From: an uncultured Candidatus Izemoplasmatales bacterium
GTDB taxonomy: Bacteria; Bacillota_I; Bacilli_A; MAG-NZ
Direction: 5' to 3'
NCBI GenBank assembly: GCA_964589075.1
Contig: CAZPQU010000004.1
Location: 59,090 to 123,089 of the forward strand
Length of the DNA: 64,000 bases
In this document: positions 30,331-51,160 of the stretch, piece by piece
Layout of the letters: every line of letters begins with the position of its first letter
How positions within the stretch are numbered: the first letter of the stretch is position 1
Program-made: the position numbers and the translations under genes
Notes under the pieces: generated by a model
Database searches by the model: none
Told to the model about the DNA's origin: nothing
What the model saw: only the letters and a program-made list of their open reading frames with translations

Positions 30331-30543
30331 TCATTCAAGCAGATTCTCCAAATTGTATGAATCACTACTCTTACTATACTTCACTTGTTCATATATATAC
30401 TCTTCTACCAGCATTGCATTTATAGAATTAATATACCTAGTTACTTGCCTCTCAGATATATTCAATCGAGTTGATAAATCTCTTCTACTTATCCCTACCC
30501 TTTTGACATATAAAATAATAAATACTTTAATGATATTTTCCAT
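30331..30543 (-). CDS. small HTH DNA-binding protein
   Basis: ISRRDLSTRLNISERQVTRYINSI helix-turn-helix pattern. Confidence 0.5.
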   Translation of the reverse strand: MENIIKVFIILYVKRVGISRRDLSTRLNISERQVTRYINSINAMLVEEYIYEQVKYSKSSDSYNLENLLE

Positions 30544-30700
30544 TGTTCCTCCTAGTGTAATTTAGATTCAAGCAATTTCCCCAATGGAACTAAGATAGCT
30601 ATTTGATTATAGTGTACTTTTACACACAACACAAAAGTAACTAAATATCCACTTTTCAAAAACAGAAACAGTGATATAATTTAAAAAAAGGAGGAGTAGA

Positions 30701-31015
30701 ATGAGTAATTATATAGTGTGCATTAAAGAAGATGACAACAAAGTTATTACAAAAGTAGGAATAAAAACGCAACTAAGGAATAGTGGGTATAAAGAATTAA
30801 TTTCTAGAGGGGAAGCTATAAAGTTAATTGAACAAAATGATAATTTCTTCTCTGCAATAAAGAATTCTAAGTTCACTAAGGAGAACGATGAAGATTATTT
30901 TTTAAAGGCTGCTAAAGTCTCGGTAGTATCAGTATCAGGCAAAAAATATATCCGAACAGACAAAAACGATACCGCAAAGGATAATCTAGATAATTTAAAA
31001 AAATGTACTTCTTAG
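30701..31015 (+). CDS. DUF3892-like protein
   Basis: AGGAGG RBS. Pattern ...VITKVGIK...ISRGEAIKLIEQNDNFFS...KYIRTDKNDTAKDNLDNL. Confidence 0.5.
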   Translation: MSNYIVCIKEDDNKVITKVGIKTQLRNSGYKELISRGEAIKLIEQNDNFFSAIKNSKFTKENDEDYFLKAAKVSVVSVSGKKYIRTDKNDTAKDNLDNLKKCTS

Positions 31016-31064
31016 GGATTGAGACATAAAAACTATAACTTAAAATAACGAAGGAGATTAAATT

Positions 31065-31451
31065 ATGGGAAGATGGTTCATAAAAGCATGGAAAAACAGA
31101 ATTGATGTAAAAGTGGCAAAAAAAAAGAACATGGTTAAAATTTCTGCATTTCAGACTTCAAAATACACTAAAACTATAAAAAAAACAGCGAGAAGACCGA
31201 TTGAAGTAGAAATCGATCCAGTTGTAGAAATAAAACAAGAGATTCTAGATCTCTTGAATGATATCAAGGTTAATATTGCAGATGAAACAGATGCAGAAGA
31301 ATTATTAGTGATATGTAAGGCGCTAGCTGTGATTGAGAATAAAATTGATGAATTTCAGAGAGACACTGTTGAAGAGCAGAAGCTATGGCTAAAACTTAAA
31401 GAAATTGCAGAGGAGTATTTATCATATGCAATCGACCCTGATAAAGATTAG
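31065..31451 (+). CDS. hypothetical acidic coiled-coil protein
   Basis: 128-aa ORF with a GGAG RBS. Confidence 0.4.
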   Translation: MGRWFIKAWKNRIDVKVAKKKNMVKISAFQTSKYTKTIKKTARRPIEVEIDPVVEIKQEILDLLNDIKVNIADETDAEELLVICKALAVIENKIDEFQRDTVEEQKLWLKLKEIAEEYLSYAIDPDKD

Positions 31452-31776
31452 TTTCACTATACTCTCATCTTGGTTGGCTATTTGTTTTATGCTACTGTTT
31501 AATACGATTATTCCTAGGGTAAGTATAAGTTCCTTTAATGTAATTTTATTTGGATTTAAATATACATTTGCAATATTAGTTTCAAGTTATTGGTTTTCCA
31601 AAATTGATAATACAGCGTTCATATCCTATATTAAAAGAATAAGTTTTCTTCTGACTTTAATATTATTCATGTATCCAGATCTAAATTCTAGGCTATTTTC
31701 AATGTTGATATTCTTAATTGCTACATTGATCGATAATAATAGGGTGCAAAACTATGTTTCATCAATAGTAAGATAG
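31405..31776 (+). CDS. small membrane protein
   Basis: 3-4 TM helices. The start is uncertain because the ORF overlaps the previous gene. Confidence 0.35.
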   Translation: MQRSIYHMQSTLIKISFTILSSWLAICFMLLFNTIIPRVSISSFNVILFGFKYTFAILVSSYWFSKIDNTAFISYIKRISFLLTLILFMYPDLNSRLFSMLIFLIATLIDNNRVQNYVSSIVR

Positions 31777-31812
31777 ATATATAAGTATTTTGATTGAGCT
31801 TTAGCAGTAAAT

Positions 31813-31834
31813 AAAAGACCAATTTTGGTCTTTT
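31813..31834. terminator. bidirectional terminator between convergent genes
   Basis: aaaagacc-aatt-ttggtctttt. Confidence 0.55.
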
Positions 31835-31853
31835 ATTATTGACTACTAATCCT

Positions 31854-33971
31854 TTAGAAAATAAGTTTGCTTGGTTGTAGCAGTTCCTTGTTTAGTGTTT
31901 TTCTCATTACGATCTCATTATTCATTAGAAGGTCTCTTACTTTCATTTTGCACTTGTTTGTAGATAACCAGTACTCCTTACTTACCGGCACTGCACAGAA
32001 TTCTAATGATGCCTTGTCGACTAATCCTCTATCAAACAACTGGTTGAACAGTTCTGCAGGTGTCAACTTGTTCCAAGTAGCCTTACCAGTAGTAGTTGGT
32101 TTAGAACTTATCTTCCTTGCAATAACTTTTGCATGTTTCATCAGTCCGGCTTTACTGATCAATTTTGTAAACTTCTTCCTATGATCAACCGACATCTGAG
32201 TAAGTAGTTTTATGTTTTTAGCATATCTTTCCTCTTCACTCATAAATATCTTAGGTACACTGATTAGTTCATCCATAATATCCTGAAGGGGTTTATATCC
32301 CATGTACTCAACGTCTGATAACTTCATGTCCATTGAGTCCCAGGTAGGTAAGTCTTTAAATGTTTCAGAATGCTTATCAGTTTTAGCTGTGCGAATGATT
32401 TTAAGATAATGGGTATTATATCGACCAAAGGTGTCACTCTTCCTCATAGTTAAACATAGGCCAAAACTACGGCTATTAAAGTCTCCACTGTCCTCAACCA
32501 TAACTCCCTGAAGTAACTTAGGGAAAGTAACTCTTCTACCAACGTCCTTAATGGATCTATAAACTCCAATTTGGAACTCTAGGTATCCTTTAGCATTAAG
32601 TCTATCTTGCAATGCTTTGGCTTTAGATATAATTTTCCTGTTCAGCTGTCTAGCCTTGTTTAAGAAAACTTTTCCTAGCTCAGTTTTAGTTATTTGACTA
32701 ACTGCTAATAAAGCCAACTTGAACGGTGCTGTAACCATGTTTTTATACCACGTCTTAACTTCTGTCCACTCTATCAATGCATACTCAAAAAACTTTTTAA
32801 TGAACCAGTTATTTAGTTTGAATACGCCAATATAGAATCCGATCAATTTTCTAATGTTTGGTGAAGTACATCGTTCTGTCTTCCCCATGACGTGCATGTA
32901 GCACAGGTGAAGTTCTCGAACCGCTTTAATTTGTCTCATTGGATCCTGAGTAACAGTATAATAATAAGAACTCTCTCCTAGTAAATGTCCTATCAGAGTA
33001 AAGAACTCTCTAATTCCTGATATATGTTTAACATAAGCCTCGTTCTTCTTATCTACATTTCCATTAAAGATAGCTGATTCAGTTTCAATCACGATCATTG
33101 AATGAATAAACGGGAACGAGTTGTCCTCTTTTATAGCTATCATTGATTGTTTAAATTTCTTGCTCATAACTAATTCTTGAATCTGTTGGTTTTTGTCTAG
33201 CTTCAGTACTTCGATTATTGGTTGATTACTTAAGATATAATTTGGAATATGAACATATCTAACATAATAGATAAAGTATTCAAACAACAAGTCCAGGTAT
33301 TGCTTTCCACCTGGTGTTATTCCATCCTTGTAGAACATTGTTGATTTACGTCCCTTTATGTAATCCTTAAGGAATTCAAGCCCCGTCACTTGATTCGACT
33401 TGGAATACTCCCCATCGATGAAGCATTCGTTTTGACTCATGGTGCTAATAAATGCACTCATAATCTTTTTTTCACTACTTTGGACGAACTTATGTCCATA
33501 ATGTAATATGTCCAGGTACTCATGAACTTTATCAAAGTCAATCATGAAGAGTTTATCTCTTAGCTCCTTCATCTTCTTTGCATCTTTTACCATGATGAGC
33601 TCTCTCATGATGTTCGCTGATCCAACAACAGATAAATCTTTACCAACACGTTGCGGACCACTTACTTGTCTCAGCATCGGTAAGAGCCCTGTGTCAGTTA
33701 ATACCTCAGCAGATTTCTTTCTTAAAATCTCACATTCGATTTTTTCTCCTATGAGTTTGTAAACTAGTTTAAAGAATAGAACGACCACACCAGTGATCGC
33801 TCCTATATATAATGTAATCTTTCCGATTACTATCCATGGTGTAAGTCCAACTAATCCTTGAAACACTAATATAAATACTACTGTTCCAACTGAAGCCTTT
33901 AGAAGTAGGATCCATTTTTGAAGTTTCTTATCAAATTTTTCAACACGTGATAACTCAATTTTAGTTTTCAT
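31854..33971 (-). CDS. membrane-anchored putative P-loop NTPase (candidate assembly or DNA-translocation ATPase)
   Basis: Two N-terminal TM helices, a Walker-A-like GPQRVGKD and a possible Walker B MIVIETE. Last gene of the long operon. Confidence 0.35.
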   Translation of the reverse strand: MKTKIELSRVEKFDKKLQKWILLLKASVGTVVFILVFQGLVGLTPWIVIGKITLYIGAITGVVVLFFKLVYKLIGEKIECEILRKKSAEVLTDTGLLPMLRQVSGPQRVGKDLSVVGSANIMRELIMVKDAKKMKELRDKLFMIDFDKVHEYLDILHYGHKFVQSSEKKIMSAFISTMSQNECFIDGEYSKSNQVTGLEFLKDYIKGRKSTMFYKDGITPGGKQYLDLLFEYFIYYVRYVHIPNYILSNQPIIEVLKLDKNQQIQELVMSKKFKQSMIAIKEDNSFPFIHSMIVIETESAIFNGNVDKKNEAYVKHISGIREFFTLIGHLLGESSYYYTVTQDPMRQIKAVRELHLCYMHVMGKTERCTSPNIRKLIGFYIGVFKLNNWFIKKFFEYALIEWTEVKTWYKNMVTAPFKLALLAVSQITKTELGKVFLNKARQLNRKIISKAKALQDRLNAKGYLEFQIGVYRSIKDVGRRVTFPKLLQGVMVEDSGDFNSRSFGLCLTMRKSDTFGRYNTHYLKIIRTAKTDKHSETFKDLPTWDSMDMKLSDVEYMGYKPLQDIMDELISVPKIFMSEEERYAKNIKLLTQMSVDHRKKFTKLISKAGLMKHAKVIARKISSKPTTTGKATWNKLTPAELFNQLFDRGLVDKASLEFCAVPVSKEYWLSTNKCKMKVRDLLMNNEIVMRKTLNKELLQPSKLIF

Positions 33972-34261
33972 TATCCTATCCCAATTAATGGAATGAGATA
34001 TTTCACCATCTCAAGCCAAGCTTCTATAAATTCAATATCAAATCCCGCTAAGGATATTATCCTTGCGAATACAGTCAGTCCAAATACCCAAGTAATGATC
34101 ACTCCTGATATTTTTATCTTCTTAAACAAATACAAAACTAAAATGAATATTATTAGGTACAAAATGAGTTTGATTACTGGAGCGACGTTATCCCAAACAA
34201 AGAACCCGTTCTGCATGTAGTCTATGAATTTTGCTATTTTACCAACATTCTCAAGATCCAT
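33971..34261 (-). CDS. small membrane protein
   Basis: 96 aa, 2-3 TM helices. Start and stop overlap the neighbouring genes. Confidence 0.45.
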   Translation of the reverse strand: MDLENVGKIAKFIDYMQNGFFVWDNVAPVIKLILYLIIFILVLYLFKKIKISGVIITWVFGLTVFARIISLAGFDIEFIEAWLEMVKYLIPLIGIG

Positions 34262-35346
34262 TAGGTTATAATCTCTGCAGACTTAATAAAGAAATCCAAT
34301 ACTCTAGAATCAAATAAATCTGCTCCATAAACTGCTATAAGTAATACTAAGACCACCACAGCTACTGCGATAGACTTCACAAAACTATTAGTCGTAAACA
34401 ACACAAATAAGAATGCAAGAATCACTCCAACCCACCAGTAGTCTTTTATAATTCTGTCGAGGTCGAATGATTCTCCACTAAATACTGTCGCAATAACTCC
34501 GGGCTCTTTTACTGTGAACGTCTCTTCCTCTTCTATTACTTCATTAATTACTGGTAGCTCGGCCGCACCTATTACTACAAGCCTCTCAGTGAACCCGACG
34601 TTACCCATAGAGTCAGTAACTGAATATCTTATGATATATACATCTTCTACTTCGATAGCTTCTCCTGGTGTGATTCCACCATATTCAATCACAACGTCGC
34701 TGGTTAGATCCACAACATTGTCACTATCAAATGTTGACTCAGCTGTAAACCCCGGTTCTACAAATACATATCCAACTTGGTGCTTAAACACGTCACCATG
34801 GTTAAGCTCAATATTTGGATACTTTTCAAGGTCATTGTGTTCGAATGTATAAGTTGCATACTCGACACCAGTTCCAGCAACAATATCAAATGCCTCATTA
34901 TGAAACTTTATCTCCTGCAGATACCATTTCCCATTAATTGATTGTGGTAACCCATCATGGAAGTTTAGCTCGTAAACCGCTTCAACATCATCAGGCAATC
35001 CTTTCCAGGCTGTTGATTCTTTTGTATAAGTAATTCCCTGAAGTAATGAAGCTCCCGTATAATACTGAGGAACAATCCTTTCGCCATTAATTACAAAATA
35101 CTCGATTTTATACTCCAAGGAATCGATTCCTTTTAAATCAAAGAATGGTGCTTTTTGGTTAAATCCAAGTGACAATTTATAATAAGTTCCTCCGCCCCAT
35201 GGAGTCTTTGTTTCAAATTCCATATATATAAGTTCAGGATGATCGGCAGGTACAATCTGCCTATCTCCATATCCTACAGTTGTACTTGCATTTACTGAAG
35301 GTAGTAATAACATAAAGAACATCAATATCATTATCAGCTTTTTCAT
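34261..35346 (-). CDS. secreted, C-terminally TM-anchored protein with an Ig-like (DUF5011-type) domain
   Basis: Signal peptide. Segment VFVEPGFTAESTFDSDNVVDLTSDVVIEYGG...YIIRYSVTDSMGNVGFTERLVVI. C-terminal TM helices. Confidence 0.5.
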   Translation of the reverse strand: MKKLIMILMFFMLLLPSVNASTTVGYGDRQIVPADHPELIYMEFETKTPWGGGTYYKLSLGFNQKAPFFDLKGIDSLEYKIEYFVINGERIVPQYYTGASLLQGITYTKESTAWKGLPDDVEAVYELNFHDGLPQSINGKWYLQEIKFHNEAFDIVAGTGVEYATYTFEHNDLEKYPNIELNHGDVFKHQVGYVFVEPGFTAESTFDSDNVVDLTSDVVIEYGGITPGEAIEVEDVYIIRYSVTDSMGNVGFTERLVVIGAAELPVINEVIEEEETFTVKEPGVIATVFSGESFDLDRIIKDYWWVGVILAFLFVLFTTNSFVKSIAVAVVVLVLLIAVYGADLFDSRVLDFFIKSAEIIT

Positions 35347-37856
35347 TTCTTGTCCTCTTTATCTTTCTTGAATGTATAGTAAACAGTTCCACCAAGTACC
35401 ATAACTCCAGTACCGGCACTTACTATAAGTCCTGTTGTAGTCATAAATAACCAGTCAATTTTTGGTGCCATAGTTCCATAAAGGAATCTAGCCCACCAAA
35501 CATTGTCAGTTAAATGGATCTCTTTCTCATACAAGGTCCCAACTTCGAACTCAGTAATTGATTCAAATATCCTTACACCTATCTCTGTGAATCTTTTAAT
35601 TGAAATAGAGTCCAGGTTAAATATAATCTTAGAGTTAGATCCAAGTCTTGTCGGAATAATAATCTCAGTGTAAGCCTCATTAATCTCGAACTCTGCACTT
35701 GAGTAAGTTGATCCATTTATGCTTAATGCAGTTATCTCGTATCCGTTCGGATTAAGTAAGCTAATAAGTAGCTGTGTCTCATCACCTGCAAACACTTCCG
35801 AGTCAGCTAAGTCGATTGATATAACTTCTACCTCTTCAGTAAATGCATAAGCTGTAATCGGAACCGATACAATAACATCATCAACCAGGAATGAATTAAA
35901 CGCCTGGATATTATTGAAGGTCTCAAATCTGATCCCATCAAGAACGAATACATGAGTTCCTACTGTGTCCCTAGCTGTAACCGGAATAGTAATAACTTCC
36001 TTCGATGCATCAACTGTTATATCAGTGTAAGAAATACCATTGATAATAACAGAGTAAATATTGTGATTACCTGGATTATCAATCGTTAATATCAAGTCAA
36101 ATTCACTCTCAACAATTGCTCTTAAGCTCTCGCTCCTAAAGTTCTTAACTCTGATGTTGGCCAAGTCTATCGGATTGCTTACTGTATAAGTAAACGGTGA
36201 TAGAATTATCTTGCTTGAGTTGTAGTCAGTAAGTGCGATATTCTTAGTGAAATTGATGTGCTGCACTTCGTAATTAAACTCACCTTCAGTTACACCTACC
36301 GCCATTGCGATTGTGATAACCGAATTAGTTATATCAATGTCAAATACTGTGTGATTCGTTCCATTAATCCTGATGTAATTAACCACTAGCTCGTCTGGGT
36401 TATCAAGTATGATTACCAGGTCAATAATATCTCCAAGTAATGCAGTTCCGGGTATGGTAATATCAGTCACGATTATGTCATTCGTGAATGTTAGATTTGA
36501 TGATACAAATTCAGTTCTGTCGATGCTTTCAATATAACTATCAAATGGTGATACAAGTTCTATAAATTCAATACTCTCTACTTCATGGATGTTATCTCCA
36601 TAAACTGTCTGAGCTGTAAGTGGTAAAGTAATCACTGTGAAACTTGCATTGACGTCATAGCCTTCTGATGAGTCCGTGTATGTGATTCCATTAACAACTA
36701 AGTCCCCGGTATAATATCCATCCGGATTCGTTAACTCAATTATCAAGTTATAGTCTTCTCCAAATGTAACTGAAGACTTATCAATATATGAATTATCATA
36801 ACCTGCGGTATGTTGTATCGGCATCTCAGCCTGTATTGTGTGACTTGATCCAATTGTCCAAGTCTCGAATATCCCGTTATCTAAGACCTCGATATAATCA
36901 ATTACATGAGTAATGGATCCATCAATTGTCATAGTGTTCGTAATAGGTATGGCCACTTCAGTGAAGTCGTCATTTATTACATACCCTTTTGATAATTCAG
37001 TCTCATGGGAAACGATTCCCCCATCTACCGAAATATCGCCAAGAGTTACTCCATCCGGGTTAGTCAGTGATAAAAGTAAATAGTACTCCTCACTGATTCC
37101 AGAAACGACGTCAGTGCTAAATGCTAGCTCATCAAGTGTCATTTCACTACCTGCAGATACAACATTAGATAGTGAATAATACTCCTGGGTGTTTGTTGAA
37201 GTAGTAGTCATTCTTGTATAGTTAACTCCATCGTAGGAATATTCTAAATAATCACTCTCAGGGTTCTGATCAGTAACAAATAAAGCTGTGTTACCAGTAT
37301 TTATGGTTGTATTCCACAAATAGTAGTATCTGTGAGTAACTTCGAACTCATATCCAGTTCCTGGATTCAGTCCTTCCAATATAATATTTGTAGCAATCCC
37401 ATTAGTAATATATAACGTATCACTCTTATATAAATATCCATTGAATAGTAATCTCAGAGTCTGCCCCATGTACTCCTGAACATCCCACCAAGCCCATTCA
37501 TCTCCAGCGTCAGATTTTATCTCATTGGTACCATAACTAATTTTGGTATTAGGTACTATTGTTGGTACTAGTCTAATTTCTCCAGATTGCTTATGTGAAT
37601 ACAAGTTAGTCAGAGATGCTAAGTCAGACTCCGACTCAATAAAATTATCAGCTGTATAAGACATGGTTCCGTCGGTATCTGTAGCTTGTCTTACATGAAC
37701 TGGATAACTTAAGTTATAAGTTGATCCATCGACTGAACTAAATTCAACTTGCTCAGTCTGAGGCGTATAAGAGTGATCAACAGTAAACGGATTATTGAAC
37801 GTGAATCCAATTATTGTTCCGATAAATAAAACAAATATACTTAACGTTTTTTTCAT
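35343..37856 (-). CDS. large secreted, C-terminally TM-anchored tandem-repeat protein (candidate spike or adhesin)
   Basis: Signal peptide. At least 5 repeats of ~95-100 aa sharing L-x-L-x-NP-(D/G)...(I/V)NG-x-x-Y-(T/S). C-terminal TM helix plus a Lys-rich tail. Confidence 0.55.
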   Translation of the reverse strand: MKKTLSIFVLFIGTIIGFTFNNPFTVDHSYTPQTEQVEFSSVDGSTYNLSYPVHVRQATDTDGTMSYTADNFIESESDLASLTNLYSHKQSGEIRLVPTIVPNTKISYGTNEIKSDAGDEWAWWDVQEYMGQTLRLLFNGYLYKSDTLYITNGIATNIILEGLNPGTGYEFEVTHRYYYLWNTTINTGNTALFVTDQNPESDYLEYSYDGVNYTRMTTTSTNTQEYYSLSNVVSAGSEMTLDELAFSTDVVSGISEEYYLLLSLTNPDGVTLGDISVDGGIVSHETELSKGYVINDDFTEVAIPITNTMTIDGSITHVIDYIEVLDNGIFETWTIGSSHTIQAEMPIQHTAGYDNSYIDKSSVTFGEDYNLIIELTNPDGYYTGDLVVNGITYTDSSEGYDVNASFTVITLPLTAQTVYGDNIHEVESIEFIELVSPFDSYIESIDRTEFVSSNLTFTNDIIVTDITIPGTALLGDIIDLVIILDNPDELVVNYIRINGTNHTVFDIDITNSVITIAMAVGVTEGEFNYEVQHINFTKNIALTDYNSSKIILSPFTYTVSNPIDLANIRVKNFRSESLRAIVESEFDLILTIDNPGNHNIYSVIINGISYTDITVDASKEVITIPVTARDTVGTHVFVLDGIRFETFNNIQAFNSFLVDDVIVSVPITAYAFTEEVEVISIDLADSEVFAGDETQLLISLLNPNGYEITALSINGSTYSSAEFEINEAYTEIIIPTRLGSNSKIIFNLDSISIKRFTEIGVRIFESITEFEVGTLYEKEIHLTDNVWWARFLYGTMAPKIDWLFMTTTGLIVSAGTGVMVLGGTVYYTFKKDKEDKK

Positions 37857-38209
37857 CTCTTTTTACTCCCCTTTCGTACATAGAACTTTGACTGAAACCT
37901 ATCGAGGATCCCGTCACCATTTCTATCTTTATCTTTTTTATTTCTAATGCCGTCTTTATCATCATCTTTCATCCCATCAACAAATCCTAAAAACTTGCTG
38001 ACAATGATAATAGGTATGACCGGCACCATATATAATCTAAGTTTCACAGTGAGGATAACTACAGCGATTAATAGTATAAAAAGAAGGAACCACATGAAGT
38101 AACTAAATGCGGTTCCTACTTGAGCTATTCTATATGCTGAAGTTAGGAACACCTCTACTGGATTAAAGAAGGTTTTGATACCTTCCCAAATAATAGTAAA
38201 TTTTTCCAT
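37853..38209 (-). CDS. small membrane protein with a basic/acidic tail
   Basis: 118 aa, 2-3 TM helices, DKDGIRNKKDKDRNGDG tail. Confidence 0.45.
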   Translation of the reverse strand: MEKFTIIWEGIKTFFNPVEVFLTSAYRIAQVGTAFSYFMWFLLFILLIAVVILTVKLRLYMVPVIPIIIVSKFLGFVDGMKDDDKDGIRNKKDKDRNGDGILDRFQSKFYVRKGSKKR

Positions 38210-38223
38210 TCTTCACACCTCTT

Positions 38224-41217: not shown

Positions 41218-41222
41218 CCTAA

Positions 41223-42611: not shown

Positions 42612-42622
42612 AATGATTCCTC

Positions 42623-42844: not shown

Positions 42845-42845
42845 G

Positions 42846-43049: not shown

Positions 43050-43050
43050 A

Positions 43051-43455: not shown

Positions 43456-43457
43456 TT

Positions 43458-44216
43458 TTAGTCCTCCTGGTTAAAATCAGTGAAGATACTTGTTTGACCA
43501 CTAGCAGTTATTCCATTCAATCGGTCACACGCTATTTTGTGGTATTCCGGATCTATCTCAAAGCCTATGAAGTTTCGATGTAATTCTTTAGCTGCGACAG
43601 CTGTAGTTCCTGAACCCATAAAGAAGTCAGCTACAATCTCTCCTGGTTCACTAGAGTTGATGATAAAGTTCTTTATGAAGTCCAACGGCTTAATCGTTGG
43701 ATGCATGAATAATGCCTTGTCAGCTACGTTCGCCTTTCTTACATAAAACTTGTGCTTTGTTTCATATGATCCTCGTAACCTCACTCCTTTTTCTCTAAAA
43801 TAAAAACAGTATTCTATATCAGGCAAATATGTATTATTAACTGCAGGAGTTGGGTTGGTCTTACACCAAACTAACAATTCAAAGTTACAATCCAAATTAC
43901 TAAAATAATCGAAGTACTGTTTCAGTTGGTACTTGTTACACCAAATGTAAATATTGATTTTCTTCATTACTCGAACTATCTCATCGAGTAGGACGTTCGT
44001 GATTCCGACGTCTAATTTCTTGCTTGCTAGTTCAGTCTGTAGCTTGTGCATCGCTCCGGTAATATTACTAGCATTCTTACCGAGTTTACCCTTGTTGATT
44101 TTCAGTTCATAAGGGGGATCAATAACCACCAGGTCAATACACTTGTCCGGTAGTTCCTGGATAGCCTTATAACTATCCTCATTGTGAATCTTGTTTAAAC
44201 TATATTTTCCTATCAT
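43458..44216 (-). CDS. DNA methyltransferase (N6-adenine/N4-cytosine, beta class)
   Basis: Motif IV VIDPPY precedes motif I FFMGSGTTAVAA. Confidence 0.8.
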   Translation of the reverse strand: MIGKYSLNKIHNEDSYKAIQELPDKCIDLVVIDPPYELKINKGKLGKNASNITGAMHKLQTELASKKLDVGITNVLLDEIVRVMKKINIYIWCNKYQLKQYFDYFSNLDCNFELLVWCKTNPTPAVNNTYLPDIEYCFYFREKGVRLRGSYETKHKFYVRKANVADKALFMHPTIKPLDFIKNFIINSSEPGEIVADFFMGSGTTAVAAKELHRNFIGFEIDPEYHKIACDRLNGITASGQTSIFTDFNQED

Positions 44217-44294
44217 ATGACAGTCCTTTCCTGTCTACGATAGATCTTTGATTAATTCCTTATTTGTTTGCTATACTATTAAAGAGGTGACTAA

Positions 44295-44741
44295 ATGAAC
44301 AAATTTCTTTCAAGAGATAGGTCAAAAGGATGGATGATATTTCAAGTTATTGGTGATGTAATAGCTACACCCTTTTACCTTATTTACTTTATTTCCTTAA
44401 TAGTTAAGGGACTAATTGTTATTGCAAAAACAGTAGTCAAGACAATAGATGAATCAGTAAATTTTTTATCTTCCCTTATCTATCAAGCCTTTATGATATT
44501 TGAAACAACTAAAAACCCATGGTTTAACTTACTGGAACTCAAATGGATAGTGATTTATATGTTTGCAATCCATATTTTTAACTTCGTAATCGCACCAATG
44601 ATTCTTTATAAAAAGAACCAAGCGGAAACATTTGAAGAAAGAATGAAGATAGCTTTATTTACAGGGTCTGTCATATTATCAATTGAGTTGTTAAGTCGCT
44701 TAGTGTTTTATTTCTTGCACGGCCATTTTAACGCAATATAG
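44295..44741 (+). CDS. membrane protein (moron-like, opposite strand)
   Basis: Own RBS (AGAGGTG). 4 TM helices. The only plus-strand gene inside the long minus-strand operon. Confidence 0.45.
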   Translation: MNKFLSRDRSKGWMIFQVIGDVIATPFYLIYFISLIVKGLIVIAKTVVKTIDESVNFLSSLIYQAFMIFETTKNPWFNLLELKWIVIYMFAIHIFNFVIAPMILYKKNQAETFEERMKIALFTGSVILSIELLSRLVFYFLHGHFNAI

Positions 44742-44870
44742 GTTATAGTTGTTACTGTTACCCCTACATAGTATAGAAACATATCCTGTCGAATGATAAG
44801 TCCAATCATATACCCTGAGAGTAAATTTATCAGGGTGTTTTTTATTGTGTTTTTAATTTCTGAGTTCATT

Positions 44871-45101
44871 CTAAGCCCCTCTAATTTGAGATGTTGGTTC
44901 CATTATTCTAGTACTCATTGTGTTATTTGAAGAGTCATAAATAATCTCCATCCAACACTCACAGACAACGCAGATTCCTGATCCACTTCCATAGCTCCCA
45001 AGTAGGTGCTCCATGGAAGGGACACATACATGTTCTTTCTTACACTTAGGACATTTTATTAAGTACTCCTCAGTAGGGTTTGGATAATATCGTCTAGACA
45101 T
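44871..45101 (-). CDS. small zinc-ribbon-like protein
   Basis: CPKCKK ... C ... CVVCEC. Confidence 0.4.
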   Translation of the reverse strand: MSRRYYPNPTEEYLIKCPKCKKEHVCVPSMEHLLGSYGSGSGICVVCECWMEIIYDSSNNTMSTRIMEPTSQIRGA

Positions 45102-45113
45102 TTTTGATTTCCT

Positions 45114-45413
45114 CTAATATGTGAGTGTTCTTCTTTGTGTAGTTTCTTTCAGCAGAGTTTCAAGTTTGATATATGCAGATCCATTATATGAGTTACTAAA
45201 TATCTCTCCATATGATTTAATAATTGGGTATCCCTGGTAACAGTTAGATTTGATATCTTCTAATGTCATTTTTTCAGCGCTATCTAAATCAGTAGTGTAG
45301 CCTTTACCCAGTGTTCTTTCCTCATGATCATCCGAATACACTCCCCAGAACTGAATAGGATTCGTACCGTGTTTAATACTTACCATTACATAATCTCTTC
45401 TTAGTTTAGGCAT
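45114..45413 (-). CDS. hypothetical protein
   Basis: 99-aa ORF abutting the next gene. Confidence 0.35.
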   Translation of the reverse strand: MPKLRRDYVMVSIKHGTNPIQFWGVYSDDHEERTLGKGYTTDLDSAEKMTLEDIKSNCYQGYPIIKSYGEIFSNSYNGSAYIKLETLLKETTQRRTLTY

Positions 45414-45731
45414 CTATAGACTCTCCTTAGAATATTGTTCCCTCAGAGCTTCGAGGGTTTTGGACTTTAAGTCCTTATTTTCGTAATACAATTTAATGAA
45501 TCCATCTATCAACTGCGACTCACTAAATGAATGAACTATCGTCTCATCTTTCTCCAGGACTAAGCCATACTGTTGTCCTTTACTAGTTCTAACAATCACA
45601 TGAGTACTTCCGTTAATCGTTTCTAGATCAGTACAAACTCGTTCCTCGAATCCACCCATGCATCCTTTGATTTTTACTATTGCGTATTTTTTATCTTCAA
45701 CCTTAAATCTTGATTTATCTATTTTGCACAT
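45414..45731 (-). CDS. hypothetical protein
   Basis: 105-aa ORF. Confidence 0.35.
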   Translation of the reverse strand: MCKIDKSRFKVEDKKYAIVKIKGCMGGFEERVCTDLETINGSTHVIVRTSKGQQYGLVLEKDETIVHSFSESQLIDGFIKLYYENKDLKSKTLEALREQYSKESL

Positions 45732-46219
45732 GAGTAACTTACATCCTTTCCAACTTTACTGAAAAGTCTTTGAATCTTTGGACACAGTATCTTCTTGTCA
45801 TAGCAATCCCAACATCGTTTAAGGTCGATAGAACAAGCCATCCACTCACCTTCATATTTGAAGTTTGATTCCTCTTGAAATCTCCTTCTAGTTTTATATC
45901 CTATTTGGCTCAAACACTGATCACATATTTTACGTTCTCCGGTAGGACTATTAGGTCTACCACAAACTCTACATTTTGGAGGAACCAAATTTACTCCCCC
46001 GACTTTGTACCTTTTTTTTAGTCTGCCGTGATTTAGTTCTTCAGTAACTGTAATAGCACTGACGTCTGTACAAGCTAGAATTACTGTGGCGTATTCTTTA
46101 GCAAACTTAAGAATCGAAAGAATAGGTCTCCCTTTTCTCATTCTTCCAGTGAAGTACTTCTTATCAGTTTCAAGTTTGGCTCCATTCTCAGCTACTACAT
46201 AGTAAGCAATATTAATCAT
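45719..46219 (-). CDS. Cys-rich protein
   Basis: CRVCGRP...CDQC and a C-terminal CWDC...C cluster. Confidence 0.35.
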   Translation of the reverse strand: MINIAYYVVAENGAKLETDKKYFTGRMRKGRPILSILKFAKEYATVILACTDVSAITVTEELNHGRLKKRYKVGGVNLVPPKCRVCGRPNSPTGERKICDQCLSQIGYKTRRRFQEESNFKYEGEWMACSIDLKRCWDCYDKKILCPKIQRLFSKVGKDVSYSCAK

Positions 46220-46550
46220 CTGAACACCTACTACAAAGTGATGGTGCTACCCAGTGACATGGATGGCCTTGAGCATCGACACAAATACCACAGTCGGAAT
46301 CAGTGCATCCACATATTTTACATTTCATTGCTACTTCATAACCTGCTAAATTAAGTGCCTTAACTGTTGTCTCAGTTACATACATGTCATTAGCCATCAA
46401 GTAATTCACTGACTCAAGTGGCTTAACAATACTAGGATCCTCTTCGAGCATTGATATTTTTAACCCAGATGGATATAACAATGCGTTACATTTATCTACA
46501 GCAATTGTTATCAAGTCATCCTTCATAATCTCTTTTACTGTTTTAGCCAT
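46212..46550 (-). CDS. Cys-rich protein
   Basis: CKICGCTDSDCGICVDAQGHPCHW...CSRC. Confidence 0.35.
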   Translation of the reverse strand: MAKTVKEIMKDDLITIAVDKCNALLYPSGLKISMLEEDPSIVKPLESVNYLMANDMYVTETTVKALNLAGYEVAMKCKICGCTDSDCGICVDAQGHPCHWVAPSLCSRCSDD

Positions 46551-46821
46551 TATCGCCTAACTCCTCAGAGGTAACAACATATTTAATATTTCTCATTATC
46601 AGTTGAACAATGAATATATAAGCAATCCAAACACTTAGGTAAAGCAGGAAGTACAAAATGCGGTCCACTCCAGGATTAAAATAGCTTATTCTCCATCTTG
46701 ATTCGTATAAAAAGTTAATTAGTAATATATAGATTCCTCTCTTAGTTGTAAATAAATCAATAACTAACTCCATTATAATTTGGCCAAACTTCTTAAGTAG
46801 ATTTCTACGCATGAGGTTCAA
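46543..46821 (-). CDS. small membrane protein
   Basis: 92 aa, 2 TM helices. Confidence 0.35.
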   Translation of the reverse strand: MNLMRRNLLKKFGQIIMELVIDLFTTKRGIYILLINFLYESRWRISYFNPGVDRILYFLLYLSVWIAYIFIVQLIMRNIKYVVTSEELGDNG

Positions 46822-47059
46822 CTCCTTCCTTGAGAGCTTTTGTTACAAACTCACATCTATCTTTACATTCCAAGCAAACAAATGCCCACACCGAACACTC
46901 ATCTCCACTTGGTTGTGTTGTCTCAATTCCTTTGAATCTATCCAACGTTTTAGTCATGATTAATTGTTTCTGAATTATTCCATGTAAATTTAGAATCTTA
47001 GAGCGTTGGTGTTCATTATTGATAATCATGTTTATAGGTTTATTCACATCGTATGTCAT
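46805..47059 (-). CDS. small Cys-containing protein
   Basis: 84 aa. CSVWAFVCLECKDRC. Confidence 0.35.
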   Translation of the reverse strand: MTYDVNKPINMIINNEHQRSKILNLHGIIQKQLIMTKTLDRFKGIETTQPSGDECSVWAFVCLECKDRCEFVTKALKEGVEPHA

Positions 47060-47430
47060 AAAATCACACTTCCTTTTTCGTAATGATCTGATATCAAGTT
47101 TACGAAATCATAAATCTCATCATCGTCATTACGCCTAACAGCTGACACTAACTTTCTAAATAGTTGCTGTGCCTTCAAAAATTGTTCAGCTACAGCACCT
47201 CTTGTGATAACAGTAAGTACTTCAGTCTGTCTAACTAATAGATCCACGAACCCGGATGCACTTGGGAACTCAATCCTTATAAACTCTATGCCCTCTAGTC
47301 CTGTAATAACTCCAACAGTGTTAATGAACTCTAACCCTGCTCTGAATTCGACTACTGCATGTCTTCCTATATGCTTTGGATAAACTTTCATATCAGGATA
47401 AGCAGTCGCCTTACTGTTAATGATTTTCAT
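47056..47430 (-). CDS. hypothetical protein
   Basis: 124-aa ORF. First gene after the non-coding gap. Confidence 0.4.
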   Translation of the reverse strand: MKIINSKATAYPDMKVYPKHIGRHAVVEFRAGLEFINTVGVITGLEGIEFIRIEFPSASGFVDLLVRQTEVLTVITRGAVAEQFLKAQQLFRKLVSAVRRNDDDEIYDFVNLISDHYEKGSVIL

Positions 47431-47948
47431 AATAAGACTCCCTTCAATAAAATATATTTACTCATTGCTCTAACAAAGACTCACTAGAAACAATGTAGTA
47501 TTCAATTAGTTATGCTTACATCTATTCATGCACTACCTCTTGTACCGGATACGCAACTACTCTACCTCTATCAGGGAACGATGCATGGGACTACACACAC
47601 ACAAAGTAGCGTGGTGGCTCCCAACAGTCCATAATGACCAAGAGAACCAAAATAAGAAAAAAATGCCAATGTCGACAGCTTGCTGGCGAGGTTTGCTTTT
47701 TAAAGAAAAATATCGGGTGAAGTATGGAAGTGGCAAGGACACCGCAGGTGGCATTGCCCAACGCCACTTTTTTTTCAGGCGTCTGAAATCAAAAAAAATA
47801 AGATTGATTCCAACTGATCAATGTATCAATTATCAGTATTACTCCACTCAGTTTAGGCCAAAAGAACTGTAATCTTCTGAGTTAAATCGAGTGGACTAAC
47901 ACCCATAAGAGGTGTTGCCGATTCATTCAGTGCTATAAGTACGAGTGT
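47431..47948. other. 518-nt non-coding, locally GC-enriched, hairpin-rich region (candidate structured RNA or replication/packaging region)
   Basis: No credible ORF. Many 5-8 bp stems. Contains a plus-strand intrinsic terminator at 47748-47775. Confidence 0.4.
47748..47775 (+). terminator. intrinsic terminator on the plus strand inside a minus-strand operon
   Basis: GTGGC-N10-GCCAC followed by 8 T. Confidence 0.45.
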
Positions 47949-48125
47949 TTATTCTATTTTTACTACTTGGAATCCACTTCTAGAGGTCTTTTTATCTCTA
48001 ATTAATCGATAAAGAGCTTCTACAGACTTGAATCCAATGTATGTTTTCAGTTCTTTGATAGTTCCTACAGCTACTGGTAGGCCTTTATCTTTGGAATCAT
48101 ATGCAATGTACAGTTTTTCAGTCAT
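47949..48125 (-). CDS. small DNA-binding-like protein
   Basis: GAGGA RBS before the Met at 48125. Pattern similar to the 73-aa protein at 42623-42844. Confidence 0.35.
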   Translation of the reverse strand: MTEKLYIAYDSKDKGLPVAVGTIKELKTYIGFKSVEALYRLIRDKKTSRSGFQVVKIE

Positions 48126-48260
48126 TAGTTTGATCCTCATGGATACGAATTTTAATCCATTCATCATTCATAGCATCACTGACCTTCTGTTTACTATTGA
48201 TTCCATCTTGATCAAGTAGCTTAATCCATTGTTCTAGCAGTTCTCTCATGTACCCACCCC

Positions 48261-48938
48261 TTAGTTTCTTACTAATCTACTGAAGGGAGCCAAGGACCTG
48301 ATCGCCGCCAATCGGTTCCTAGGAGTTGAATATAACCCCTCTTTAATCTTATTGATCCTCGATGTGTTAAAGTTTTTCTTCTCGATGGACTTGAAGTCAA
48401 TTTTCTTAATGATGTATTTGTCCAGGACTGAAGTCTTAGCTTTGTTGTTGAAGTAGTCATACACAGTTTGATGACTGCAGTGAAGTGCCTTAGCTAGCTG
48501 ACGTCCACCGACATAATATTTACATTTGCTATCATCAATCTCCTGGACTGAGTAGATATTTCCCCTCGACTTTCCTCCGGTTAAAACTCCGGCTTCTTCT
48601 TTGGTCAGAAGGATCAAGTTATCTAAAGAACAATTGTATAAATTTCTCTTATCCAGGAGGAATATATAATTTCTTCCTGATGCATATTCTGAAGGTTTAA
48701 AAGTCTTGGCCACAAGTTTAGAAACGGATACTTCTCCAAGAGTTGATATCTTGGTCATGGGTCTACCATGCTTCAGATAAACGCTTTGTTTTTTTACCCA
48801 TTTAATATTGCTTGAATGTAATGGATCCCTGTGCTGAAGTTTCTTATTCTTGAGCACTCGAAACAAGTCCCCGGACTCTGATAAATAATAGGAGATATTA
48901 CATTTTGTAAATACTAGCCTTACATCATTTGGAATCAT
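48261..48938 (-). CDS. DNA-binding protein with degenerate homing-endonuclease-like (NUMOD/HNH_3-like) features
   Basis: ...HGRPMTKISTLGEVSVSKLVAKTF... and a C-terminal HTH-like LAKALHCSHQTVYDYF. No intact HNH motif seen. Confidence 0.3.
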   Translation of the reverse strand: MIPNDVRLVFTKCNISYYLSESGDLFRVLKNKKLQHRDPLHSSNIKWVKKQSVYLKHGRPMTKISTLGEVSVSKLVAKTFKPSEYASGRNYIFLLDKRNLYNCSLDNLILLTKEEAGVLTGGKSRGNIYSVQEIDDSKCKYYVGGRQLAKALHCSHQTVYDYFNNKAKTSVLDKYIIKKIDFKSIEKKNFNTSRINKIKEGLYSTPRNRLAAIRSLAPFSRLVRN

Positions 48939-48949
48939 CTATAACACCT

Positions 48950-49159
48950 CTATGTAACTAATCGATTCTTTATTTCCACAGTCTTTTTAAGAAAGGCGTA
49001 TGAATCTCTAGTCAAAATAAATGACTTGTTACCTTCAAAGTTAACTCTACGATTGTTTCCATCAATTGTAGTTATGCTTTCTAGATTAATAATCATTCTA
49101 TTTTTTCCAGTTTTTGATCTACTTTTCTTTTGTTCACACTTAACTTCTATAAAATTCAT
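48950..49159 (-). CDS. first early-operon protein (Cro/antirepressor position), function unknown
   Basis: 69 aa, divergent from the XRE gene across the operator region. Confidence 0.4.
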   Translation of the reverse strand: MNFIEVKCEQKKSRSKTGKNRMIINLESITTIDGNNRRVNFEGNKSFILTRDSYAFLKKTVEIKNRLVT

Positions 49160-49458
49160 ATTGTATTCCTCTTTCTATTTAATTTATAAATGGCTCTGGA
49201 GGACGCACCCTCTCCTCGACTGCTTGAAGATTTGAGAGTGCACCCACCAGAACCATTAAGGAAAAAGTGTGATGAATTTGCAGTCGAGTCTATTTGAAGG
49301 AGATATTTCTATGAAAAAATTACTCCAGGCATTGCACATGGTCACCTGCTGTTGCAGAGTGGCCAGATATGATATAATTGAACTGCGAGGCACAATTATA
49401 TATAAACGTTCTATTAGACTGCTCATGTGAGGGGTCTAATTTTGCGTTTAAGCATTAC

Positions 49459-49474: not shown

Positions 49475-49492
49475 ATAACAACACCATTATAT

Positions 49493-49508
49493 AGGACTAA
49501 ATAGCCCT
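49493..49508. promoter_or_regulatory. second operator-like site AGGACTAAATAGCCCT
   Basis: Related to the site at 49459-49474, 34 nt away. Ends 24 nt before the XRE start codon. Confidence 0.45.
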
Positions 49509-49531
49509 ATGTCAAATTTCGAGGTTATTTT

Positions 49532-49741
49532 ATGTATCTGAGTTCAAACATTAAGTACTTGAGAATAAAGAACAACATCCAGCAAAAGGATCTTGGTAAG
49601 GCAATTGGAATTACTGATCGACAAGTGCGACAGTATGAAAATGGCGAGCTCAAGAATCCTAATTTTGAGTTAGTAATCAAAATTGCTGACTATTTTCATG
49701 TTTCACTTGATGAACTTATTAGAGATAACTTAAACAGATAA
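49532..49741 (+). CDS. XRE-family HTH repressor (CI/Cro-like)
   Basis: IKYLRIKNNIQQKDLGKAIGITDRQVRQYENGE...LVIKIADYFHVSLDELI. Confidence 0.75.
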   Translation: MYLSSNIKYLRIKNNIQQKDLGKAIGITDRQVRQYENGELKNPNFELVIKIADYFHVSLDELIRDNLNR

Positions 49742-49768
49742 CATTAGTTCCTCGCAAAGGTGGTTACC

Positions 49769-49996
49769 ATGGCTAGTAAACAAGTACAATATTTTATGGA
49801 TAACGTTAAATACCTTCAGTTGAACAGTAAGCTAAGTAGAGTAGTTTATTGTGATCAAGTGGGTATTAGCTTGTATCGATACGAGAAATTCATCTCCGGG
49901 GATTCAAGTGCTTTCCGAATGAGTGAGTTCGACTCAATATGCAACTATCATTCCATAAAGCATCACACAATCTTTATCGAAGGATTTTACAAGTAA
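49769..49996 (+). CDS. second small HTH-like protein
   Basis: AAAGGTGG RBS before the ATG at 49769. VKYLQLNSKLSRVVYCDQVGISLYRYEKF. Confidence 0.45.
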   Translation: MASKQVQYFMDNVKYLQLNSKLSRVVYCDQVGISLYRYEKFISGDSSAFRMSEFDSICNYHSIKHHTIFIEGFYK

Positions 49997-50156
49997 TTAA
50001 GATTGACTCGAGCTAGTCTATTGTTCAAACTAGCAAATGAGTCAAAGATCTATCTAGTGAGCTTCTGCTCTTTAGACTAAAATTAAATACATTCATTTTG
50101 TTCGTTACTGGCTATACCTTGGACTTCTCCATGGGCGATAACTGTAACGAACTTTT

Positions 50157-50184
50157 ATGTGACATAATACGTCTCTCTCATTTG
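50157..50184. repeat. inverted 28-nt fragment of the 91-nt island repeat in the integrase promoter/5' UTR
   Basis: atgtgacataatacgtctctctcatttg is the reverse complement of the repeat's 3' end, matching at 26 of 28 positions. Contains TGaCATAAT. Confidence 0.8.
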
Positions 50185-50212
50185 TTAGAATAGGAAATTG
50201 AGGAGTGATAAA

Positions 50213-51160
50213 ATGAATGACGTCAAAAAACTAATATCGCAGCTTATTGAAATGAACTGCGTTTCACTAAGCCTTACAGATATAAAAAGAATCTATCTTG
50301 CAAGAACCAAGGGACTTAACAGTCCTGGTACTTATGACAACTACCGCAGAAACCTAAATTATATTGTTGAGTACTTAACCTGGAAGAATGTTCTGACAAC
50401 TGATCAGATAACTTTTGAGAAGATATACTTGTATATCGACTTCGAGAGATCTAAAGGAAACAAGAACAATACCATTAGAGCTAGAATTGGAATACTGAAA
50501 CAAGCTCTCGAGTACAGTGAGAATAATGGATACATTTCTTCCAATGCTTTGAGGAAGTTTAAGCTACCTCCGAAGGATGATATTGAAACTAAGATAATTC
50601 CACAGGATATTATCAAGGATATCTTTGCCTACATGAACAATCTAGACAAACAAAAAAAGGTAAATTATCGCAATATTGCGGTAACCTACCTATTGTATGA
50701 TACTGGTATTCGATTTAATGAGATGCGTGAGCTAAGACTGAAGAATATCGACTTAGAAAACAGAGAAATATTTTTAACAAAGACTAAGAGTAAGAAATAT
50801 AGAACTGTGATCATGTCTGAATCGACTAAAGTTAAACTCATAGAATATATAGAATTCTGCAATGTAACTGATTACTTGTACGTAAATGTTGAAACTAATG
50901 AACGGATAAATAGAGTACACTATTATAAGTTCTTAGAACGAGTTAGAATCGCTCTGAGCATACCTAAGGATATCTCAATAAGTCCGCATAAGTATAGACA
51001 TACAATGGCTACAGTAAGCCTTAATAACGGTGCTAACATTGAATATGTTAGAAAGGTATTAGGTCATAGTAGCTTAATTATTACTCAGAAGTACTTGCAC
51101 TTAGATAAAACAGAAATAAAAAAGGTACACGATCGAACCTCTCCTATGAATTTCTTATAG
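50213..51160 (+). CDS. int: tyrosine recombinase / phage integrase
   Basis: AGGAG RBS. Catalytic residues in context: R172 (TGIRFNE), H264-x-x-R267 (HKYRHT), H290 (LGHSS), Y299 (TQKYLH). Confidence 0.85.
   Translation: MNDVKKLISQLIEMNCVSLSLTDIKRIYLARTKGLNSPGTYDNYRRNLNYIVEYLTWKNVLTTDQITFEKIYLYIDFERSKGNKNNTIRARIGILKQALEYSENNGYISSNALRKFKLPPKDDIETKIIPQDIIKDIFAYMNNLDKQKKVNYRNIAVTYLLYDTGIRFNEMRELRLKNIDLENREIFLTKTKSKKYRTVIMSESTKVKLIEYIEFCNVTDYLYVNVETNERINRVHYYKFLERVRIALSIPKDISISPHKYRHTMATVSLNNGANIEYVRKVLGHSSLIITQKYLHLDKTEIKKVHDRTSPMNFL

Follow-up and report, generated by a model that had tools for sequence, protein, structure and literature searches.

A tRNA-integrating element with a membrane-anchored ATPase and no recognisable capsid or lysis genes from an Izemoplasmatales bacterium: a candidate plasmavirus-like family

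Acholeplasma virus L2 (Plasmaviridae) is a temperate, enveloped virus of 12 kb that leaves its host by budding; its relatives integrate into tRNA genes, and the integrase is the only gene that it has in common with other viruses (PMC12662186). Inoviruses (Tubulavirales) are non-lytic as well, and their membrane-anchored assembly ATPase, pI or Zot, has been assigned to the FtsK-HerA superfamily (PMC6813254). In about 30% of inovirus-like species pI carries an N-terminal transmembrane (TM) domain, and these may be separate virus groups (Roux et al., 2019, PMC6813254). Pleolipoviruses have a core made of a spike, an internal membrane protein and an NTPase (PMC5867852). Here we compare with these systems a mobile element found in 64,000 nucleotides of DNA (the window) from an uncultured Candidatus Izemoplasmatales bacterium (assembly GCA_964589075.1, contig CAZPQU010000004.1, positions 59,090 to 123,089). 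The element lies next to a tRNA-Leu gene and combines a phage-type regulatory switch and integrase with a late module of membrane and surface-anchored proteins that ends in a membrane-anchored P-loop protein of 705 amino acids (aa).

We tentatively favour the reading of a temperate virus or virus-like element that has no capsid, assembles at the membrane and does not lyse its host. It would be plasmavirus-like in function and represent a previously undescribed family; we regard this as a serious possibility, somewhat short of a probability. The reading is favoured because a phage-type switch occurs here with no capsid or lysis genes, with exported anchored proteins and TM proteins with basic tails, and with a conserved pair formed by a winged helix-turn-helix (wHTH) protein and the ATPase. 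To our knowledge, capsid-less budding viruses of bacteria are represented by a single sequenced species, L2.

All open reading frames (ORFs) of the element were scanned in Pfam, PHROGs and/or NCBIfam. Between 10.7 and 51.2 kb of the window none of them matched a capsid, portal, terminase, tail, tape-measure, holin or endolysin family, and this includes the HK97-fold major capsid, the portal and the large terminase of Caudoviricetes. The initial annotation of this stretch, made from the letters alone, had likewise recognised no structural or lysis gene of a tailed phage, and the profile searches agree with it.

The late module and its gene order

The late module, in the direction of transcription, consists of the following genes.

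39321-39680, minus strand: 119-aa wHTH protein; a member of its family sits directly upstream of the ATPase gene in all other loci
38224-39309, minus strand: 361-aa repeat protein with an N-terminal anchor, paralogous to the 837-aa protein
37853-38209, minus strand: 118-aa membrane protein with TM segments and a basic C-terminal tail
35343-37856, minus strand: 837-aa secreted acidic protein with a signal peptide and a C-terminal anchor; candidate spike or receptor-binding protein
34261-35346, minus strand: 361-aa secreted protein with a signal peptide, one Ig-like domain and a C-terminal TM pair; candidate envelope protein
33971-34261, minus strand: 96-aa protein with two TM segments
31854-33971, minus strand: 705-aa predicted membrane-anchored ATPase of the ASCE (additional strand, catalytic glutamate) class, with an N-terminal TM hairpin and the Walker A sequence GPQRVGKD

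Topologies were taken from a hydropathy and charge scan, which confirmed those given in the initial annotation for all six distal proteins (31854-39309). The late proteins exported through the Sec route are strongly acidic, and the 837-aa protein contains five repeats of about 108 aa with the motif NPxG...ING..Y.

L2 has the same late gene order. In that virus ORF12 (membrane protein), ORF13 (738-aa envelope precursor) and ORF14 (Ig-like, C-terminally anchored) are followed by ORF1, ORF2 (81 aa, two TM segments), ORF3 (312 aa, N-terminal TM segment and the P-loop sequence PGGGKS), ORF4 and the integrase gene. The window matches it with a membrane protein, a large envelope protein with a signal peptide, an Ig-like C-terminally anchored protein, a small protein with two TM segments and a P-loop protein with an N-terminal TM anchor, although ORF1 has no counterpart. 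Both elements are temperate, code essentially on one strand, have no capsid or lysis genes and carry a tyrosine integrase that targets tRNA genes (5.5e-17 between the window integrase and L2 ORF5), a type of integrase that is also common to many other elements. They differ in that the window ATPase is twice as long as ORF3 and has a distinctive GKD Walker A motif, and in that the window element measures 20-40 kb, against about 12 kb of circular double-stranded DNA in plasmaviruses, whose virions are pleomorphic. The hosts are also different: L2 infects Acholeplasma, whereas the host here belongs to a deep lineage labelled "Mycoplasmatota" that may have a cell wall.

The same order is met in two other groups of non-lytic viruses, and the initial annotation had already remarked that the order recalls non-tailed membrane viruses. 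In M13 the genes gVIII-gIII-gVI-gI correspond to the small membrane protein, anchored spike or spikes, small TM protein and ATPase of the window. The order VP3-VP4-ORF5/6/7-VP8 of Halorubrum pleomorphic virus 1 (HRPV-1, Pleolipoviridae) follows the same late logic, with an internal membrane protein, an anchored spike with a signal peptide and a putative NTPase. Pleolipoviruses have vesicle-like virions and some are integrative; they differ from the window element in their archaeal hosts and in VP8, which lacks the N-terminal TM hairpin architecture of the window ATPase.

The 705-aa protein and its predicted fold

The 705-aa protein has a net charge of about +40 and two N-terminal TM segments. 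Its family is rare: a word-indexed search of 5.8 billion proteins gave three relatives, and when 1.84 billion representatives were searched exhaustively with a profile, 66 matches came out (22 below 1e-30). Conserved positions were read from an alignment of 36 sequences of the family. The Walker A motif is GxxGxGKD, in which K111 and D112 are invariant and an Asp takes, unusually, the place where Ser or Thr is normal. A Walker-B-like sequence, IVIETE (hhhhETE, h being hydrophobic), has a conserved T297-E298 with E298 invariant, and N249-Q250-P251, N305, R346 and R352 are conserved as well. No member of the family matched a Pfam or PHROG profile, and the family profile had no match among PDB sequences.

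AlphaFold gave an unusable model from three sequences (predicted local distance difference test score, pLDDT, of 38), and from the 36 sequences a confident model with a pLDDT of 79.8 and a predicted template modelling score (pTM) of 0.70. It opens with a long N-terminal helical hairpin, the TM anchor, and continues with a P-loop core of alpha/beta type, a second long hairpin of helices (371-460) and a small beta domain. The hairpin would tether the protein to the membrane and leave its very basic motor domain in the cytoplasm. When this model was compared with the PDB by Foldseek, the N-terminal domain of Zot came first (2r2a, probability 1.0, E 6e-3), followed by the packaging NTPase B204 of Sulfolobus turreted icosahedral virus 2 (STIV2) and by HerA; the structures of TrwB, VirD4 and FtsK were not among the top 50 matches. 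Against viral models (BFVD) the best match was an unnamed viral protein (A0A894JLK1, 1.2e-6), with Inoviridae Zot (7.5e-4), B354L of African swine fever virus (ASFV) and the 37-kDa ORF3 protein of L2 (E 0.02, probability 0.95) among the further matches. Foldseek returned no terminase fold for this protein, the only P-loop protein of the element.

Because Zot, B204, HerA and viral proteins lead the fold matches, the model places the 705-aa protein among the ASCE ATPases of the FtsK-HerA/Zot kind that serve viral morphogenesis, here tethered to the membrane. The initial annotation had suggested that the terminal Walker A protein may be an NTPase, and the predicted structure upholds this, with Zot/pI, A32/B204 and HerA as its closest folds. 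It has in common with the packaging and pumping ATPases of the FtsK-HerA group (A32/B204, HerA) the ASCE P-loop fold, the Walker A motif, the Walker B glutamate and conserved arginines. Three features set the 705-aa family apart: its N-terminal TM hairpin, its long helical hairpin at 371-460 and its GKD Walker A.

Zot is thus the best match among solved structures, and it is itself a membrane-anchored assembly ATPase of a non-lytic virus. One alternative is that the element is an inovirus-like filamentous temperate phage with single-stranded DNA (ssDNA), in which the ATPase would be an atypical pI with an N-terminal TM domain; adsorption would fall to pIII-like proteins of 837 and 361 aa, and one of the small TM proteins would form the coat. 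The presence of an Inoviridae Zot among the top viral matches, the M13-like gene order and the RstR-like repressor agree with this, as does the documented group of atypical pI proteins with the same topology as the 705-aa ATPase; an ArdC protein in a relative would fit ssDNA entry. We nevertheless consider a filamentous phage improbable. None of the 36 family members matches Pfam Zot, hhalign of the family to M13 pI aligned the P-loop only, and no HUH (histidine-hydrophobic-histidine) Rep motif was found in the element. The genome of 20-40 kb is far larger than the ssDNA genomes of known inoviruses, which measure 5-15 kb, and the ATPase is twice the size of pI. Large Ig-like proteins are present rather than pIII, and the window has no clear single-TM coat protein of 30-90 aa: its small membrane proteins, of 96 and 118 aa, have about two TM segments each.

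A membrane-anchored motor resembling FtsK-HerA, with HerA among the fold matches, would also suit a new minimal integrative conjugative or contact-transfer element. The ATPase would then be the DNA translocase, the wHTH protein its adaptor and the Ig-like proteins mating adhesins. TraB is the DNA translocase in actinomycete integrative and conjugative elements (AICEs). The conserved pair of wHTH protein and ATPase, the ArdC proteins of two relatives (loci L006 and L007), the absence of the family from virus collections and a large cargo region like those of integrative conjugative elements can all be cited for it. On the other hand, profile searches of the element found no relaxase, no type IV secretion system (T4SS) genes, no VirB4 or VirB6, no type IV coupling protein (T4CP), no TraB-type translocase or mating-pore protein and no FtsK_SpoIIIE domain, and the family is absent from 72,556 plasmids. 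TrwB, VirD4 and FtsK fall outside the top 50 fold matches, within which Zot and packaging ATPases are found, and the early region is of phage type. Conjugative transfer therefore appears unlikely to us, although it deserves more weight than filamentous extrusion.

One early protein is related to the ATPase. The 165-aa protein with two TM segments encoded at 41500-41997 (minus strand) and residues ~550-575 of the ATPase share D[IV]EYMGY..L..IM (jackhmmer 4e-17). It looks like a partial paralogue of the 705-aa protein and a possible interaction module.

Relatives of the element and the weight of the evidence

The complete genome of Mycoplasmatota bacterium zrk6 (CP074575.1) contains a syntenic module of nine genes with 33-55% identity. 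The proteins conserved there are those of 293, 119, 361, 118, 837, 361, 96 and 705 aa and the terminal helix-turn-helix (HTH) protein, and the methyltransferase is 74% identical. In every other locus a small gene directly precedes that of the ATPase, and iterative searches identified its product as a homologue of the 119-aa wHTH protein. The order in these loci is wHTH protein, ATPase, small TM protein, secreted Ig-like protein, C-terminally anchored Ig-like protein and a protein anchored by several TM segments (L005, L006/7/8, L011/12, L014, L019-L023 and L025 in our numbering). The core of ATPase, wHTH protein and anchored proteins recurs beside integrases in about 15 loci. The integrase gene often follows the module directly, together with a host tRNA gene (tRNA-Phe in L020, tRNA-Trp in L022, tRNA-Asn in L007); the att partners of these three were not found within the retrieved flanks. 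Precomputed Pfam annotation shows no capsid, terminase, relaxase or T4SS domain in the relatives' loci. The initial annotation's view of the distal genes as a coherent late module is strengthened by this conservation across a family of tRNA-integrating elements, of which, or of the zrk6 element, we found no published description.

The most compact relative, L014, is a Logan contig of 13,189 bp in which an identical 30-nt tRNA 3' end occurs at 1-30 and at 13160-13189. Because the same sequence stands at both ends, L014 is a complete or circularised element of ~13.16 kb; the repeated sequence represents either the junction of a circle or attL and attR collapsed into one. It encodes an integrase, an XRE-like regulator, small early ORFs, a 301-aa protein, the wHTH protein and the ATPase, and then two large anchored proteins, two small TM proteins with basic tails and a terminal HTH protein. 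L014 is too compact to hold a capsid module, and its 13.2 kb is close to the 12 kb of L2. In L020, L022 and L025, moreover, the module runs straight into the integrase gene, as it does in L2.

Absence of structural genes is also what a satellite, a decayed prophage or a genomic island would show, in which case the late module would be surface-protein cargo for adhesion or exclusion with an associated ATPase. The heavy load of defence and peptide-biosynthesis genes in the same att-bounded unit points in that direction, and so do host surface proteins with the same Ig-like domain and the same style of C-terminal TM anchor. Against this stand a module that is intact and syntenic in zrk6 at only 33-55% identity, a core that recurs beside integrases and makes up most of the 13.2-kb L014, and exact att repeats and a perfect promoter. 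Neither terS nor a capsid-remodelling or primase-type satellite gene was found in the element. We hold this explanation to be improbable, about as much so as a filamentous phage. The initial annotation had offered, as an alternative, an element that merely remodels the cell surface; this fails to explain the conserved pair of wHTH protein and ATPase.

The ATPase fold, like that of A32/B204, and the many small membrane proteins could also belong to an icosahedral, membrane-containing virus with a double-jelly-roll capsid (Tectiliviricetes-like) whose capsid protein has diverged beyond recognition. Profile searches of the element gave no double-jelly-roll candidate. Only three soluble proteins reach 200 aa, namely the methyltransferase, an HTH protein of 225 aa and the basic protein of 293 aa, and no capsid family is matched by any of them. 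The sole soluble candidate in L014, of 301 aa, is unrelated to the 293-aa protein. A32-type packaging ATPases, furthermore, have no TM anchor. We give this explanation very little credence.

Several observations weigh against the plasmavirus-like reading that we favour. The Foldseek E-values of the ATPase are modest. With the 21-member family of L2 ORF3, hhalign gave a probability of 7% over the P-loop only, and homology to HRPV-1 VP8 was rejected in the same manner (0.3%, P-loop only). The 837-aa protein did not match the L2 ORF13 group. The 361-aa Ig-like protein has one Ig-like domain in common with that group (probability 30%), and Ig-like proteins of the family's other subgroup match ORF13 at 1e-27 to 1e-33. 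As a control, a chromosomal surface protein of the host in the window also matches ORF13 (2.8e-8), and because of this the Ig-like link is largely generic and was down-weighted. The ATPases and spikes of L2, inoviruses and pleolipoviruses thus show no sequence homology to those of the window beyond the P-loop and a generic Ig-like domain. The likeness to plasmavirus, pleomorphic or inovirus systems put forward in the initial annotation holds for gene order, and for the ATPase fold in the case of L2 ORF3 and Zot, and does not extend to the sequences of ATPases and spikes. Likeness to plasmaviruses would be one of function. In addition, neither IMG/VR nor INPHARED contains the family, and it is missing from 50,697 deposited phage genomes. 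The 293-aa protein has no PDB match and no relation to a Rep-like family of 438-aa proteins that the other subgroup carries, and ArdC, which is typical of conjugative elements, occurs in one relative. Finally, zrk6 belongs to an early-diverging lineage that keeps several peptidoglycan genes (PMC12786226), and because of this, budding through a wall-less membrane cannot be assumed. A wall-less host would make budding straightforward; the host lineage may have a wall.

If the element is indeed a plasmavirus-like virus, its cycle might run as follows. After derepression the element would excise and replicate, and the anchored proteins would populate the cell membrane as future envelope spikes. 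We infer that the wHTH protein would recognise element DNA and pass it to the membrane ATPase, which would condense or translocate it into a membrane bud or, less likely, drive the extrusion of a filament. Particles would then exit without lysis, and at the next cell the 837-aa and 361-aa proteins would bind a receptor and bring about fusion and entry. As a particle of the vesicle type would have no fixed capacity, 20 kb of defence and peptide-biosynthesis or bacteriocin cargo would be tolerated.

A broader proposal, which we consider unlikely though worth stating, is that the family defined by wHTH protein, GKD ATPase and anchored proteins is a distinct and widespread lineage of vesicle-like, capsid-less budding viruses with a morphogenesis motor of its own, perhaps the counterpart of an L172-type virus. 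Acholeplasma virus L172 is enveloped, has ~14 kb of ssDNA and no homology to L2, and was never sequenced (PMC13375369). Speculatively, it would have the size and host range expected of the family's compact members. Judged by its genes, the family seems to be a previously undescribed one of a known but very sparsely sampled kind of system. If the broader proposal is right, plasmavirus-like biology would extend beyond Acholeplasma to marine-sediment Bacilli and Mycoplasmatota. Deep-branching relatives of Mollicutes would then be shown to have elements of this type whose cargo serves anti-phage defence and peptide biosynthesis. Because L2 shares only its integrase gene with other viruses, virus-detection pipelines are blind to viruses of this type. 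The membrane-anchored GKD ATPase with its wHTH partner could serve as a marker for mining, as pI did for inoviruses, and a testable model for the loading of DNA into membrane buds would follow.

Some of the relatives carry additional genes. An ArdC-type anti-restriction protein (ArdcN plus MPTase-PolyVal) is encoded at 12.1-13.6 kb of L006/L007 in low-GC DNA (24%), which hints that some members enter cells as ssDNA. In L011 an insertion (1960-8727) with genes for two large serine recombinases and for a defence pair of SIR2 type separates the integrase/HTH genes from the module of wHTH protein and ATPase; L012, an identical contig of 10.8 kb from another sample, breaks exactly at this insertion.

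Boundaries, regulatory region, cargo and host

The boundaries and the regulatory and early genes of the element are as follows.

10667-10694: attL, exact 28-bp direct repeat of the tRNA-Leu 3' end, AATTTGGTGCGGATAACAGGAGTTGAAC
51229-51256: attR, 28-bp repeat overlapping the tRNA-Leu 3' end
51233-51315, minus strand: tRNA-Leu, adjoining the integrase gene
50198-51160, plus strand: tyrosine integrase (Pfam Phage_integrase 3.7e-31; PHROG 1 2.1e-46)
49532-49741, plus strand: 69-aa XRE/RstR-like repressor, divergent from the operon (best NCBIfam match the RstR phage-repressor family, 8e-16)
49515-49486, minus strand: sigma-70 promoter, 12/12 consensus, facing the repressor gene and heading the long operon
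39969-49426, minus strand: early operon, with genes for the 293-aa protein, a sigma-region-4-like HTH protein, 2-TM proteins, the methyltransferase, CxxC proteins and a 225-aa HTH protein
43458-44216, minus strand: N6_N4 DNA methyltransferase (Pfam 4.6e-29)
39969-40850, minus strand: basic 293-aa protein, conserved in zrk6
39884-39898, minus strand: terminator-like hairpin, followed by a promoter-like site at 39691-39662
30701-31776, plus strand: three accessory ORFs (DUF3892 protein of 104 aa, 128-aa protein, 123-aa membrane protein), not conserved in zrk6
30331-30543, minus strand: terminal small HTH protein of 70 aa, in the same end position in zrk6, L014, L016 and L017
30129-30159, both strands: bidirectional terminator-like hairpin separating cargo from core element

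The 28-bp repeat had no match expected by chance in 100 shuffles. Since this tRNA 3'-end repeat is present only at 10667 and 51229, the att-bounded unit covers 10695-51228, or 40.5 kb. The initial annotation had placed the element at 30331-51160 (20.8 kb); this corresponds well to the conserved core and falls short of the full extent. A pair of tandem islands with an internal att site at ~30 kb was considered and rejected, as neither exact k-mers of at least 9 nt nor local alignment found a third copy or remnant near 30-32 kb; the att-bounded unit contains no second recombinase, and its left half has no integrase of its own. The small HTH gene and the terminator at 30129-30159 mark the end of the conserved core. 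A counterpart of this gene lies beside the att end in L014 and after the ATPase gene in zrk6, L016 and L017, and the 20-kb core is therefore the ancestral element, the left 20 kb being either cargo gained at its end or a fused island. The G+C content is ~31% for the whole window and slightly higher, 34-37%, for 32-51 kb.

Behind the promoter a minus-strand run of 17.6 kb extends from 49426 to 31854, interrupted by a single ORF on the plus strand. The methyltransferase belongs to the beta class because DPPY precedes FxGxG in its sequence. CxxC motifs are found in six small early proteins, the HTH protein of the sigma-region-4 type has 128 aa, two early proteins have two TM segments each, and small early ORFs give PHROG matches. 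With its repressor switch, methyltransferase, Zn-ribbon proteins and PHROG-matching small ORFs, the early region looks like that of a phage. Integrase, divergent XRE repressor, operon of ~17 kb, beta-class methyltransferase and six CxxC proteins had all been read correctly in the initial annotation. The hairpin at 39884-39898 and the promoter-like site that follows it probably form the boundary between early and late transcription.

A gene-free stretch of 520 nt within the early operon (47431-47948, minus strand) is relatively GC-rich and contains several hairpins (RNA fold z-score -2.0). It has no Rfam match and could be an origin, a noncoding RNA or a regulatory leader. The Rfam scan of the element found only the tRNA, and DnaA boxes like those of L2 origins were not enriched in it. 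The DUF3892 gene (30701-31015, plus strand) and two more plus-strand ORFs lie between the ATPase gene and the terminal HTH gene and are probably accessory.

The left half of the att-bounded unit contains the following genes.

10695-30128: cargo or fused island inside the att-bounded unit, no phage structural genes
11319-12182: trypsin-like secreted protease
14951-19944: radical-SAM (SPASM-like) maturase cluster with two ABC exporter/ATPase genes
20749-30102: defence island
21570-22247: PDC-M43A-like protein
23031-24254: Shedu SduA (6e-58)
26984-28240: E1/ThiF-like plus DUF6791 protein, overlapped by a 75-aa ORF (28200-28427)
28747-30102: HEPN RiboL-PSP protein

The left half is cargo and does not encode a virion: a tailed prophage with its structural genes in this 20 kb was rejected, as the region consists of protease, radical-SAM/ABC, Shedu, E1-like and HEPN genes. 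The sequence of 14951-19944 suggests a gene cluster for a ribosomally synthesised and post-translationally modified peptide (RiPP) or of bacteriocin type within the att-bounded unit, in which the 88-aa ORF at 16291-16557 could be the precursor peptide. In zrk6, defence-like genes (a methyltransferase plus HATPase_c, and an insertion sequence) also follow the ATPase end of the element.

Outside the element, the closest homologues of a flanking flavoprotein are those of Mycoplasmatota bacterium WC44 (58% identity) and zrk6 (55%), with Bacilli and Haloplasmataceae next at ~45%. The host genes just outside attL (6584-9240, minus strand) are adjacent to each other and encode two paralogues with duplicated CDGSH-type iron-sulfur motifs, one of them fused to a glutamate-synthase-like flavin mononucleotide (FMN) domain. 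On the other side, 56705-62215 (plus strand) encodes two host surface proteins, one of 1274 aa and one of 558 aa. The shorter one has Ig-like domains of the L2 ORF13 type and a C-terminal TM anchor instead of LPXTG, which bears on the envelope type of the host.

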